Origin: Alphaproteobacteria bacterium CG11_big_fil_rev_8_21_14_0_20_44_7
GTDB lineage: Bacteria > Pseudomonadota > Alphaproteobacteria > Rickettsiales > 21-14-0-20-44-7
Assembly (NCBI GenBank): GCA_002787615.1
Contig: PCXJ01000100.1
Location: 1 to 32,582 of the forward strand
Direction: 5' to 3'
Length of the DNA: 32,582 bases
Shown here in pieces: positions 20,245 to 26,619 of this stretch. The notes below the pieces were generated by a model. The model was not told where the DNA came from, did no database searches, and saw only the letters and a program-made list of their open reading frames with translations. Position 1 is the first letter of the stretch, and every line of letters begins with the position of its first letter. Both the position numbers and the translations under genes were made by a program.

Positions 20245-23200
20245 CTACGCGACACCGCCCACACCTTGACTATTATCTCTCGCTAATTTGTTCAAAGTCT
20301 GCGCCTCGAGAGAATCCGCGTTCATATCATACTCACCGCGCTGATATTTATCGGCTAAATCGGCAACAACATCAATCTTTTCTGGCTGCTCAAGGCTCTT
20401 TTCAACCTCATCCCTGCTTGGAATATCAGCATTTACCTGCATTCTATGCTTGCTAATATCCTCTTCCAGAGATTTTGGCTCTTCGCTAGATAGTTTTGCT
20501 ATACGTACAATTTCTTCCAGACCCGCCTCATTTGCCTGATCTTTGCTCACCCAACCTGAGCCAAGGATATAAAATGCATTATTATCCCTACTTGCTAATT
20601 GGCTTGCTTGCGCAGGGTCATAAATTGATTGAGGGTAAATATCCTGAGGGTCAATAAAAACATCCGTTCTGGTTATTTTTGCTGAAAAGTCCAGATGAGT
20701 TGCATATCCACCATTTTTGGATTCCGGTGCGATTTTGGCAATCACCTCACCTGCTTCAACTCTTTGACCTTCCCGTACCAATTGGTCAATATGGGTTAGC
20801 TTTATATCCAAACCATTATCGGTTCTTAAAATCAGGTGATGCCCCAAAGATTTTACAATTTCACCACTATAAGGCGCAACAACCTCTTCACCGGTTTTAC
20901 CACGATAATCGCAGGCTTTATGGTCTTTGCTATAATATTTGCCGGCTTTTTCAAATTCAGGATAATATCTGCTACCAAAAACCTCTGTTATCTCCGGTGC
21001 ACGACTTGGTATAGGATTAAACTTTGAAGGCTCAAGATTTGCAACAAAATCAAAGGCATTTGCGGTTTTTATGCTTTTCGGCAAATCTTCATAAGCTTGC
21101 GCCATGGTTTTGCATTCATCTGTGATGCAATCATGCTCAGCAACGGAATTTATCGCCATACGAATTGCATATTCTGTTGTTGGCCCAAGGTCTTCATCGG
21201 CCTTAATTCCGATCTCACGCTGGAACCTCCCGACATTATTACCCATATCGGAGCTTTTTATATAACCAATCTCGCTCAGAGCAGCGATATATGTTGTTGG
21301 CTTATCCCAGTCAAATATATCCCTGATTCTGCCACGCAAATTATCGCGGGCATTTGCCAGCAACCCTCTTGGCTCGGCGGCAGGTGGAGTTTCAGCCGGA
21401 GGACGGTCAACCACATCGGTTACATTACCTTCAGCATCCCTAATAAGCGCCGTATTATCGCCCTGAGAACGCGCGGAAGCGATTAGCCTTTTTTCAGGAA
21501 TTTTCTCACCATTCATAATCGCTGCGAATTCCTGCATTTTCTCAGGCGTAATTTCGGTTTTGATATTCTGATGCGCATACATACCGTGCTGAATCACCGC
21601 ATCGCGCAAAACTGCATGCATTTTTGGCTCTAATTCGGCATTCAGGCTTTCTGCTCTTTCCGCCGCACCGTTTTTCTGACGTTCTGCCACTAATTCCGGT
21701 ACTTTTCCGCCATTTTCCGTGACCATTTGGTTATAAATCGCATCGGCCATTTTTTCGGCTCTTGCGCGCATTCTTGGCACATCAACCAATTCCGGAAAAT
21801 CATCAGGATTATTATTAAATCCTGCCTCCACCAAAAAAGCTGGCATTTTTGTTGATCTCAATACGGCAAAATTATTTGTTTTCACCCCGCGCGAGCGTAA
21901 ATCACTGGTTTGGTCAACTGCATTATTAACAGCCTCGGCATAACCTTTTGATTGCTCGCTATAATGGAAAGTTTCATATCCGGTAGCCTGCTTAGCATCT
22001 GCATCATTACTATGTAATGAGAAAAACACAGATTTTGCCTCGCCCATATCATTATTGGCAAATTCAGCGCGTGCCTGCCATGATTTCTGCAATGCACGCC
22101 GATCGGTACCACCGGAAAATCCATGGACTTTATCACCCTCGGTGGTGAAACGAACATTCACGCCTTTTGCCGCCAGCGCCTGCGCCACATAATATTGCTC
22201 AATGGATTTTTGGTCGGTTTCACTAACACCCACCGTTTTTTCATCAGGCTTTCCGCGCCCCTCAATCCCTTTATTCGGTACTACCCCGATTTTTGATTGT
22301 GCACCTGGGGCAAAATTGCCATTGATATAATCCCCATGACCGCGATCCAGATAAACCGTAAAATCACCTTTTTGGCCTTTACCTTTATTAAAAGTGAATG
22401 CTTCTGGAATTTTACTAACTGCAAAAGTTTGCGGGACAGACATCACCGGAACAACCGTTACCCTGCCCTTTTCGTCAAATAATCCAGCAGAACTTTTCGC
22501 TAATTCTGCAAAATTCGCATCCGTTTTTGGAGTCTGGGCTGGAGTCGAAGTCGGAGCTGGAGCTGGAGTCGGAGCTATTTCTGCAGATTCATATTCCTCT
22601 GTCACCTTGTTCGGGTCACTGGATGCAATTAAAACTCTTGAGCTACCCTGCGAAGGCGATTTTCCACGCTCTTTTAGCATTTCCAAATCAGCTCTATCAG
22701 TAGTATCAACTCCGCTTGGGCGCATATCTTTCGGCAAGCTATTATACCATTCGAGATACTCAATTGAATCCTGCGCATTAACGAACGTACCGCAACCGCT
22801 ATTGCCATCACTTGCATGGGTTAGCGCATTTACCGTTGAGCCTTTATGTGTGCCGACAATTTGGCGGCTTGTTGATGTACCTTGATTCGGGCCATCAGGA
22901 TGAATGCCGAATCTATCGCGACCACCTTTATATTCTTCGGGATTTTCAATTCTCTGGAAGAATCCTGCATTTTCACCGTTAATTCTGCCGAATGAATAGC
23001 CTCTCCATTCTTCTCCTTGCTTTCTGAATTCGGAAATCGCTTTTTGCGGGTCGCCCCCGTCATCAATATCAAATGTCCAGAAGCCTCGGCTATTATATTG
23101 CGTGCCCGCCAATTTAGCAGGCTTGGAGTTCAAATCCTCATAAAATGATGGCAATGCACCATAACCTTCACTCTTATCGCTACCATATCCCTTGCTTTTT

Positions 23201-26200: not shown

Positions 26201-26619
26201 TTCTGCACGCCCTGCCTGATAAAATAATCTTCAGTAATAATCCGCGCTGAAAACTCCAAAACATCTGACTTGCTAAGCTTAGAATCCAATTTTTCGATTA
26301 TCTGTTCTGATTCAGTAAATGTAACTTTATGACCATTACGCTCAAGCCATGGCTGCAATGAAATCCCCGTAACGCCCGCCAGCGTCACCTGTCCGTCAAA
26401 GCCTTTTCCGGTTAGTTCCAGCCCCTCATTCTCGGCAATCAAATCGCGCATGATGAATTTTTCAAAATCCGCATCAATTCTCAAGTCTTTTAGGGAATCA
26501 AATTCACCTGATTCAGAAACCGTATAGCCCCATTTACCTTTGGTGACCTTGTGGCTTCCGCTTCCTTGGAAGCGTTCTGTTAGAAATTTCAGAGCTTTAT
26601 CGAAATCCTTACTACTCAA
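20245..26619 (-). CDS. Giant (2124 aa) leaderless multi-catalytic peptidoglycan hydrolase
   Basis: TTG start at 26619 with AAGGTG 4 nt upstream. Hand-mapped modules, as DNA coordinates:
- GH108-like, 26095-26487
- SGNH/GDSL, 24745-25434 (LPIGDSLMSG)
- PG_binding_1-like, 23905-24087
- Pro/Lys/Ala linker, 23530-23682
- Tlde1/YkuD-like, 22735-23322 (GRDRFGIHPDG...NSGCGTF)
- amidase_3, 21730-22368 (LDRGHGD, FFSLHSND, LVEAGF)
- PG_binding_1-like, 21145-21312
- M23, 20650-20997 (DHKACDY, THLDF)
- charged tail, 20248-20649

There is no signal peptide. Confidence 0.8.
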   Translation of the reverse strand: MSSKDFDKALKFLTERFQGSGSHKVTKGKWGYTVSESGEFDSLKDLRIDADFEKFIMRDLIAENEGLELTGKGFDGQVTLAGVTGISLQPWLERNGHKVTFTESEQIIEKLDSKLSKSDVLEFSARIITEDYFIRQGVQNLHPSLQRQFLDSAFHRGPAAANWMLHNAVRKINGETEITPNPGAEPGLPGFDDPYFGLIPPTDAEQAKYTAIQQFYYDGLKNPKLLNEVNAAAAANPSLVNDAMVEFRHEHYKKDVKFDNLIARKNKANPDYKPFEEWEVRFGDPKIDRRDKWIKKGDNGKNTGNDGWINRANSFLSKYEGDVIKSKARGYEFVPMPENAEDKSYEEVISQDFRTPPSQPAPKLAPEDTPSRAEVEPAAQPANPNQSALEQIFADGKPKVLPIGDSLMSGVARKLGEQGFDVVDYDYFKGGSGLLIGASIEDSNSKTSRIPGVSEDGNITLSEAAKTAEYAVIMEGTNNGYPLDRQVRHKGEVVTANDDIYREKFTQLVRDVHEAGIKPIVIFPDTAPESRLSNPKLERIRDVQMEVVADLRAEGIAIGAVDLMASNLGKAASGKDFINEGLDYPKSVYDDISKSRAGDNSKVHYSPEAYAKIAEMAFTKGLGYIDGGMLLAAQERDTVMASTEQYTAPQVSQEDYYAGVTEPVVAENTRSDAELELLEEAEAHGIEQQLAVMNAQEETAVDIVSEAVVADAKTPEKPTAKPVDYSIAKFYEQMTDFGKNLLDKAEKGYAEYSREVQDAVVALRGDLAKPEAVKVADKTAPQTSEPSTATQEIVPVIAKQAVDPAAIKEKFTKDFKEISAAHNDDDILPLHKNSSRKGRADFKAETNQLQDVLVKLGYMQEKSESDKSAPYLAPSEKGGGFFGGKTYDAFTQFQRDWGISADGIRQHGAQYALDVASVLNQQTGWQKGQEIPSQIKGDVQRFNRLSLGEKKEWTKHQIITDIFAELFGESLGLQPQMIASAPPAQQREVVAAPEPQPKPKPEAKVEVAKSKPVPAPTPEVAAKPAPKKDTAPLLKEGGFGNIPASGNVSEEPSLSALGDGTGVSSSLLPAIDGYQEQEQVLYRPQQENNPQAVDKDGFRGPYHIVMAADTAPRPTGTPAKMVIFDDDGRFVKEYAMKSGGKSKGYGSDKSEGYGALPSFYEDLNSKPAKLAGTQYNSRGFWTFDIDDGGDPQKAISEFRKQGEEWRGYSFGRINGENAGFFQRIENPEEYKGGRDRFGIHPDGPNQGTSTSRQIVGTHKGSTVNALTHASDGNSGCGTFVNAQDSIEYLEWYNSLPKDMRPSGVDTTDRADLEMLKERGKSPSQGSSRVLIASSDPNKVTEEYESAEIAPTPAPAPTSTPAQTPKTDANFAELAKSSAGLFDEKGRVTVVPVMSVPQTFAVSKIPEAFTFNKGKGQKGDFTVYLDRGHGDYINGNFAPGAQSKIGVVPNKGIEGRGKPDEKTVGVSETDQKSIEQYYVAQALAAKGVNVRFTTEGDKVHGFSGGTDRRALQKSWQARAEFANNDMGEAKSVFFSLHSNDADAKQATGYETFHYSEQSKGYAEAVNNAVDQTSDLRSRGVKTNNFAVLRSTKMPAFLVEAGFNNNPDDFPELVDVPRMRARAEKMADAIYNQMVTENGGKVPELVAERQKNGAAERAESLNAELEPKMHAVLRDAVIQHGMYAHQNIKTEITPEKMQEFAAIMNGEKIPEKRLIASARSQGDNTALIRDAEGNVTDVVDRPPAETPPAAEPRGLLANARDNLRGRIRDIFDWDKPTTYIAALSEIGYIKSSDMGNNVGRFQREIGIKADEDLGPTTEYAIRMAINSVAEHDCITDECKTMAQAYEDLPKSIKTANAFDFVANLEPSKFNPIPSRAPEITEVFGSRYYPEFEKAGKYYSKDHKACDYRGKTGEEVVAPYSGEIVKSLGHHLILRTDNGLDIKLTHIDQLVREGQRVEAGEVIAKIAPESKNGGYATHLDFSAKITRTDVFIDPQDIYPQSIYDPAQASQLASRDNNAFYILGSGWVSKDQANEAGLEEIVRIAKLSSEEPKSLEEDISKHRMQVNADIPSRDEVEKSLEQPEKIDVVADLADKYQRGEYDMNADSLEAQTLNKLARDNSQGVGGVA

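Follow-up and report, generated by a model that had tools for sequence, protein, structure and literature searches.

A leaderless 2124-residue protein with peptidoglycan hydrolase modules in a variable slot between trmD and rplS of an uncultured alphaproteobacterium

What would a protein of more than two thousand residues, built around modules for cutting peptidoglycan and carrying no classical signal for leaving the cytoplasm, be doing between two housekeeping genes? The question is raised by contig PCXJ01000100.1 of the groundwater organism Alphaproteobacteria bacterium CG11_big_fil_rev_8_21_14_0_20_44_7, all 32,582 nucleotides of which were analysed and are referred to here as the window. 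Between trmD and rplS the window holds one giant gene. Its product, the giant protein, had been depicted in a preliminary description, made from the sequence alone, as a chain of five different peptidoglycan-cleaving modules and as an exported antibacterial or predatory weapon. By comparing the locus with its relatives we find that the giant protein is the largest occupant of a clade-specific, fast-changing slot. A role as an effector that is exported without Sec and attacks the walls of other cells is possible, and is the reading that we tentatively favour.

The giant gene is a single open reading frame (ORF) of 6375 nt without interruption, as first described (Table 1), and it is a real, native coding gene. 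Every segment of it, including the parts for which no relative could be found, fits its own frame far better than the other two, and its codon usage has a cosine of 0.967 with that of the neighbouring housekeeping genes. The protein is present in an ENA assembly, on five JGI contigs and in an NCBI metagenome-assembled genome (MAG), where it is listed as PIR31899.1 and encoded on a contig of 84.9 kb. An assembly chimera is unlikely to be the source of the gene, since the three independent assemblies (ENA, NCBI and JGI) agree except at one internal residue.

The protein had also been described as leaderless, and this holds. The TTG start codon is preceded by a Shine-Dalgarno sequence, and because an in-frame TAA overlapping it closes the frame upstream, no signal peptide can have been overlooked on the 5' side. 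The first 60 residues are hydrophilic, with no hydrophobic N-terminus, and no transmembrane (TM) segment is found in the chain, the highest Kyte-Doolittle mean over 19 residues being 1.28 for the whole protein. From the hydrophilic N-terminus and the low maximum hydropathy it follows that the protein carries neither a Sec, Tat or lipoprotein signal nor a membrane anchor. The chain has only four cysteines in its 2124 residues, a pI of 5.1 and long linkers rich in proline and alanine.

Table 1. Positions of the giant gene, its parts and its closest neighbours in the window.
Feature	Position (nt)	Strand	Residues	Remarks
Slot Y protein	17233..19296	minus	687 aa	Leaderless; C-terminal Amidase_3 (Pfam); weakly hydrophobic internal helix
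trmD	19578..20243	plus		Pfam tRNA_m1G_MT, E 5.9e-58
Giant ORF	20245..26619	minus	2124 aa + stop	TTG start; ORF list and translation
Acidic C-terminal tail	20248..20649	minus	aa 1991-2124	Ends ...SQGVGGVA; no homologue
Peptidase_M23 (LytM-type metallo-endopeptidase)	20650..20952	minus	aa 1890-1990	
Second PG_binding_1-like module	21130..21312	minus	aa 1770-1830	
Amidase_3 (N-acetylmuramoyl-L-alanine amidase)	21724..22368	minus	aa 1418-1632	
Orphan region, predicted rich in beta-strand	22615..23367	minus	aa 1085-1335	
Pro/Ala/Lys/Glu-rich linker	23380..23727	minus	aa 965-1080	Composition scan
First PG_binding_1 module	23785..24087	minus	aa 845-945	
Acidic orphan middle region	24100..24702	minus	aa 640-840	No family match, no relatives
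Probable SGNH/GDSL-type esterase	24745..25434	minus	aa 396-625	
N-terminal orphan region	25585..26619	minus	aa 1-345	Holds motif ENEGLELTGKGFDGQVTLAGVTG
Shine-Dalgarno AAGGTG	26630-26625	minus		5 nt upstream of the TTG start; direct sequence reading
In-frame TAA	26631-26629	minus		Three codons 5' of the TTG start, overlapping the Shine-Dalgarno; direct sequence reading
rplS	26844..27287	plus		Pfam Ribosomal_L19

Two families of cleaving enzyme are verified in the chain. The Amidase_3 module matches PF01520 over aa 1454-1629 with an E of 2.8e-24 and 86.5 bits against a curated cut-off of 27, and it also matches a PHROG endolysin family (E 1.2e-26) and, with the motifs in register, the PDB chain of CwlV, 1jwq (E 1.9e-12). 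H1428 of the GHG motif, H1536 of SLHSN and E1598 of LVEAGF align to the equivalent motifs in the solved chains 1jwq, 4rn7 and 5emi. The fourth position, E1467, lies beyond a long insertion and was assigned by eye, so that all the metal and catalytic positions claimed for this domain are accounted for. The claim of an M23 peptidase is likewise confirmed by profile, with PF01551 matching aa 1899-1983 at an E of 1.6e-10 and 41.5 bits against a curated cut-off of 28.7. H1900, D1904 and H1942 align to the His and Asp residues of M23 chains in the PDB and H1975 pairs with the first His of HLHF, though the position of the second His is taken by D1977. This aspartate could still bind zinc, and the catalytic activity of the module is uncertain as judged from its residues.

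These two modules are also what might connect the giant protein with phages. The closest PDB sequence to the M23 segment is 9k2v_E, a chain of 1058 residues deposited as 'Internal protein', and the Amidase_3 module resembles PHROG endolysins as well as phage and plasmid amidases at 26-31% identity. The protein might then be the domesticated remnant of a phage or another mobile element, such as a virion-associated lysin, an internal or ejection protein or a tape-measure-like protein, which are typically large, leaderless and provided with wall-hydrolase modules. However, no phage or plasmid genes are present in the 32.5-kb window and no repeats flank the giant gene. When a phage or plasmid origin was tried against 50,697 phage and 72,556 plasmid records, the Amidase_3 domain alone found matches, none above 31% identity. 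Together with the host-like codon usage and the retention of the slot in relatives, described below, this makes a descent from a mobile element very unlikely.

A third hydrolase is probable. The preliminary description had placed an SGNH/GDSL esterase at aa 396-625, and Pfam Lipase_GDSL (PF00657) does match aa 427-615 with 24.3-27.7 bits, just over its cut-off of 23.6. The characteristic blocks can be picked out by eye, with Ser405 in the GDSL block followed by GGSG, GTNN and a C-terminal His, and the segment is locally similar to the GDSL domain of a protein encoded at the same position in a related genome (L084; z=3.9). On the other hand, Lipase_GDSL_2 (PF13472) reaches only 23.6-26.1 bits and stays under its cut-off of 32.9, and the Asp expected of a DxxH block is missing.

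Two PG_binding_1-like repeats had been proposed, and both are weakly supported by comparison with repeat proteins while failing the Pfam cut-off. PF01471 matches aa 847-904 with an E of 0.003-0.004 and 17.8-18.4 bits, under the cut-off of 23. An exhaustive phmmer search with aa 1-1200 against 1.84 billion representative proteins returned four relatives besides the protein itself. Each of the four aligns to aa 877-945 and is a true repeat protein of the PG_binding_1 family. The second stretch has no Pfam match, but in a targeted phmmer comparison its residues from about 1789 to 1830 align to each repeat of those four proteins, and it aligns weakly to the PG_binding_1 domain of another protein from the same position in a relative (L083). 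The two would appear, from these alignments, to be wall-binding modules.

The other two modules of the preliminary description were not borne out. A GH108-like lysozyme had been seen at aa 45-175, where the motif ENEGLELTGKGFDGQVTLAGVTG, of pattern ENEG...DG..T..G.TG, recalls the Glu...Asp...Thr signature that lysozymes carry. Searches of Pfam, NCBIfam and the PDB sequences gave no match to this stretch even at E<=10, PF05838 included and with aa 1-400 as the Pfam query, and the N-terminal region has no relative among the 1.84 billion proteins. Comparison with the lysozyme-like domains of two slot proteins of relatives (L084 and L091) by Smith-Waterman alignment with shuffles, hidden Markov model (HMM) and hhalign indicated that they are unrelated, and a single-sequence AlphaFold2 model of aa 1-340 has a pLDDT of 33 and is unusable. 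The resemblance of the motif is what remains.

The second of these, a Tlde1/DUF2778-YkuD-like module at aa 1100-1295, falls in the orphan region that is predicted to be rich in beta-strand. This region contains GIHPDG, with H1240, and NSGCG, with C1276, one of the four cysteines of the protein. The Tlde1 motif is H-x(14-17)-(S/T)-H-G-C-h (PMC9638812); here the His and the Cys are 36 residues apart and NSGCG stands in place of (S/T)HGC. There is no Pfam match at E<=10, and removing the 23-27 residues of the His-to-Cys loop produced none to YkuD or DUF2778. An HMM of Tlde1, for which the supplementary alignment of PMC9638812 supplied 17 sequences, found nothing significant in the segment with hmmsearch --max or hhalign. 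A word-based search with aa 1070-1390 gave no relatives, and a single-sequence AlphaFold2 model of aa 1080-1335 is unusable (pLDDT 36). There is a marginal similarity (z=2.95) between aa 1085-1180 and a YkuD-like protein of the relative L086. That protein, of 284 residues and leaderless, is encoded in the slot Y region, just upstream of recA, on its own contig (9068-9922, plus strand) and has a weak YkuD match (E 5.5e-4) and a SIGCLHM motif. The GH108-like and Tlde1-like motifs can be read in the sequence and we would treat them as leads, not findings.

To speak of five different peptidoglycan-cleaving modules was thus an overstatement, as two are verified families, one is a probable hydrolase and two are motifs. 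Even a count of three distinct peptidoglycan-active families recovered by profile is borderline, as it depends on including the binding domain or the esterase. No relative could be detected for roughly half of the chain, of which the first 1200 residues were searched exhaustively against the 1.84 billion proteins.

The orphan half and the altered zinc ligand of M23 might be taken as signs that the giant protein never leaves the cytoplasm, where it might process imported muropeptides for recycling or nutrition, or be an accretion of low function released upon lysis; the absence of any kind of export signal would fit as well. We consider this quite improbable. The PG_binding_1, Amidase_3 and M23 families act on polymeric sacculi outside the cytoplasm. 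That a frame of 6.4 kb is intact and keeps to the host's codon usage throughout its segments speaks for selection, and relatives retain intact leaderless wall enzymes at the same position.

These relatives come from contigs that were retrieved with RecA relatives as anchors; the runs that gave relatives are SRR11785054, SRR19577261, SRR11658678, DRR438521, SRR11476866 and ERZ19036806. By its RecA the source organism is the Crystal Geyser MAG. The nearest RecA sequences are 75-82% identical and belong to MAGs, some of which are labelled Rickettsiales. The gene order rplS, slot X, trmD, slot Y, recA, nadC, rapZ is common to four of the related contigs (L083, L084, L086 and L091), slot X being the interval between trmD and rplS and slot Y that between trmD and recA. 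A fifth, L088, is rearranged and still has slot X between trmD and rplS and slot Y next to recA, and L082 has slot Y next to recA on a contig that stops short of slot X. In the five loci that carry trmD its product is 65-73% identical to that of the window.

Slot X is always antisense between trmD and rplS, and its contents differ in each genome. In L083 it encodes a protein of 841 aa with PG_binding_1, Amidase_3 and Glucosaminidase domains; in L084 one of 563 aa with a weak Phage_lysozyme match and a GDSL domain; in L086 one of 549 aa with no known domain; in L088 one of 358 aa with PG_binding_1 and a weak M15 match; and in L091 two, of 451 aa (weak Phage_lysozyme) and 539 aa (Peptidase_S11). 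No signal peptide or TM segment is found in the slot X proteins of these five relatives. While the TrmD sequences are this similar, the slot X proteins are essentially unalignable with one another, and they share with the giant protein low-complexity tails, most of which end in small or hydrophobic residues. Since the relatives carry entirely different leaderless wall hydrolases at this place, the trmD-rplS locus would seem to behave like a rapidly diversifying effector cassette.

The distance between trmD and rplS in the window is 6.6 kb; the usual layout has the two genes on the same strand with a median gap of 118 nt, as measured in 62 diverse genomes. In the window trmD and the giant gene converge, with their stop codons one base apart, and rplS diverges from the giant gene. 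A foreign insertion was considered and rejected on account of the missing flanking repeats, the host codon usage and the retention of the slot in relatives.

Slot Y is different in kind, as its proteins form an orthologous family of 635-1132 aa in six related contigs. Each has an N-terminal domain, then a conserved hydrophobic helix and then a variable remainder that includes CHAP, Glucosaminidase and Amidase_3 domains and sometimes a weak GDSL match. The conserved helix may serve as a signal-anchor. A metagenome scan with the alignment of slot Y proteins found nothing.

Slot Y bears on another explanation, in which the giant protein remodels the wall of its own producer, for example in daughter-cell separation, for the building of an envelope-spanning machine or for a rearrangement tied to lifestyle, reaching the periplasm through a holin-like partner or with the membrane-anchored slot Y amidase. 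Slot Y orthologues in which a hydrophobic helix is joined to CHAP or Glucosaminidase and Amidase_3 domains fit a membrane-anchored housekeeping hydrolase, the retention of both slots beside housekeeping genes throughout the clade suggests a core, vertically inherited role, and no immunity gene is present. We regard this as a serious rival, if a rather unlikely one. Unrelated classes of enzyme occupy slot X from genome to genome (amidase, glucosaminidase, lysozyme-like, M15-like, S11 and GDSL), none of its proteins has a membrane-targeting feature, and an unregulated enzyme with several lytic modules would be dangerous in the periplasm of the cell that makes it.

We therefore return to the effector exported without Sec. 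It is favoured because modules are shuffled and replaced at a fixed locus, because binding and lytic modules are combined in one chain, because there is no classical signal and because the properties of the protein are friendly to translocation: the few cysteines, the acidic chain, the flexible linkers and the disordered C-terminal tail would suit passage in an unfolded state. We infer its export, its target and every one of its catalytic activities. The giant protein, synthesised in the cytoplasm with neither a Sec nor a Tat signal, would most likely be exported by a dedicated one-step or contact-dependent route, our leading guess being that its unstructured acidic C-terminal region is read by a type IV or type I system. 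The acidic tail would then be the candidate export signal. Once outside it would attack the cell walls of other bacteria. The two PG_binding_1 modules could anchor it on the sacculus, Amidase_3 would strip stem peptides off MurNAc, M23 would cut the peptide cross-links and the esterase may take off ester decorations, O-acetyl groups for instance. Further activities may reside in the three orphan regions.

As to the machinery, an isolated pair of virB9 (CagX) and virB8 genes is found in L088 at 18050-19557 (minus strand), about 7 kb from recA. The pair suggests that a type IV secretion system of the VirB type exists in the clade.

Several observations weigh against such an effector. No gene for an immunity-like protein with a signal peptide adjoins the giant gene, and the gene calls in six related loci offer no obvious immunity candidate. 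No known secretion marker was found in the giant protein, whether XVIPCD, RTX repeats, a PAAR, VgrG, MIX or Rhs domain or a two-partner secretion (TPS) domain. The sole secretion system in the window is a two-partner system, for which a substrate must have both a signal peptide and a TPS domain. The locus lies among housekeeping genes and is vertically inherited, which is unusual for effectors, and the exact protein is known from one population only. Two of the catalytic modules depart from their families as well, M23 having an Asp for its last zinc-binding His and the SGNH module having no Asp at the canonical DxxH spacing.

Known classes of exported protein were compared one at a time. As a TpsA protein the giant protein would have a signal peptide and a TPS domain, and it has neither. 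Type I RTX substrates are marked by nonapeptide Ca-binding repeats, a C-terminal signal and a linked ABC/MFP transporter; the giant protein gave no HemolysinCabind match, and there are no transporter genes of that kind in the window. As regards the bacteria-killing type IV effectors of Xanthomonadales (X-Tfe), XVIPCD structures are deposited (PMC8740702) and the C-terminal 185 aa match no PDB chain; the tail is acidic, not Gln-rich, and there is no small secreted neighbour. For the tail itself (aa 1991-2124) no Pfam, PDB or XVIPCD-like match was found. The idea of an exported antibacterial or predatory weapon thus remains the most plausible of those considered and gains from the context of the slot, but neither an immunity gene nor a secretion marker was found to go with it.

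Two of the relatives encode a small protein with the immunity-type domain T6SS_Tdi1_C roughly 7 kb downstream of recA, at 13367-13768 in L082 and at 17993-18400 in L091, both on the minus strand. No equivalent was found in the window.

A broader proposal would be that trmD-X-rplS together with trmD-Y-recA forms an undescribed, vertically inherited and hypervariable locus in an uncultured clade of Alphaproteobacteria, loosely labelled Rickettsiales-like by NCBI, and that it encodes leaderless effectors that degrade peptidoglycan, which would be exported by a type IV or another non-Sec route and used to kill or feed on bacteria, the 2124-aa protein being an extreme fusion and its three orphan regions new wall-cleaving folds. 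Taken as a whole this is unlikely to be right in all its parts.

The giant protein is rare. The absence of a characterised full-length homologue, which had been suspected, is upheld: beyond near-identical copies from the same population, the collections searched gave no homologue of the whole chain or of its first 1200 residues. A search with the whole protein through 5.8 billion proteins returned only itself, and DNA scans of 185,579 species-representative genomes and of JGI metagenome contigs found no close relatives. In the species-representative genomes the best TrmD match is 58% identical. No literature was found under the name of the source MAG.

The window is chromosomal. At its left end is a two-partner secretion pair, followed by an MCP gene, rapZ, nadC, recA, the gene of the slot Y protein and trmD, and to the right of trmD come the giant gene, rplS, clpA, clpS and leuD. 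The two-partner pair includes a second giant ORF (3-5873, minus strand) of at least 1957 aa, open at the start of the window, with an N-terminal TPS domain and MBG_2. Directly upstream of it lies a gene for a ShlB/FhaC-type transporter with POTRA_2 (5924-7597, minus strand). An Rfam scan of the window gave two tRNAs and nothing else. One of these, tRNA-Pro(TGG) at 13639-13715 on the minus strand, overlaps the 5' end of a called ORF at 13242-13724 with a small multidrug resistance domain, and the true start of that gene must therefore be further downstream. Two ORFs on the far side of rplS, at 27331-27774 (plus strand, 147 aa, between rplS and clpA) and at 30359-30901 (minus strand, 180 aa, between clpA and clpS), have no family match and no signal peptide, and neither predicted product looks like a secreted immunity protein.

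If the giant protein is exported and active it would be among the largest single-chain cell-wall-degrading effectors with several activities that are known. The slot, retained across the clade, would then show that a bacterium can maintain a fast-diversifying set of wall hydrolases within the neighbourhood of a core ribosomal-protein gene, with no visible immunity genes or known tags, and would point to an undescribed export signal and possibly to an undescribed mechanism of self-protection. Should the protein act on its producer's own wall instead, it would reveal an unconventional route for an autolysin across the inner membrane. The orphan half is in any case a candidate source of new peptidoglycan-active folds.

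Among known systems the X-Tfe of the VirB/D4 type IV system come to mind. XAC2609 combines a GH19 domain with peptidoglycan-binding domains and an XVIPCD (PMC8740702). The hallmarks of the group are an XVIPCD at the C-terminus, some 120 residues long and with conserved motifs, a Gln-rich tail and an adjacent immunity gene. Like these effectors the giant protein is a leaderless precursor in which wall hydrolases and PG_binding-type modules are combined with a non-catalytic C-terminal region, and the relative L088 of the source organism has virB8 and virB9 nearby. Unlike them it has no XVIPCD motifs, no Gln-rich tail and no adjacent immunity gene; it is about five times larger, with several catalytic modules, and the window holds no type IV system.

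The peptidoglycan effectors of type VI systems include the Tae amidases, the Tge muramidases and the L,D-carboxy/transpeptidase Tlde1 (PMC9638812). They too are leaderless wall-degrading proteins, delivered into neighbouring cells, and the His...Ser-Gly-Cys pattern of aa 1085-1335 recalls the Tlde1/YkuD motif, yet every profile test of it was negative. The giant protein differs from them in having no PAAR, VgrG, MIX or Rhs carrier domain and no immunity gene.

In its size, in the absence of a leader and in the concatenation of amidase and M23 modules the giant protein is also like the virion-associated hydrolases, the internal or ejection proteins and the modular endolysins of phages, a likeness reinforced by the 'Internal protein' to which its M23 segment is closest and by the PHROG endolysin families that its amidase matches. 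It differs in the lack of a phage context, in its host codon usage and in its chromosomal synteny among relatives.

Amongst autolysins, Atl of Staphylococcus aureus joins an amidase and a glucosaminidase with wall-binding repeats. As in the giant protein, several wall hydrolases are separated by binding repeats and linkers in one chain, but Atl has fewer modules, a Sec signal peptide and the producer's own wall as target. Wall hydrolases with many modules are already known, and so are antibacterial wall effectors without a leader. The giant protein is unusual for its scale, for how many modules a single chain unites and for its orphan half, and most of all for lying in a hypervariable, clade-specific slot between trmD and rplS.

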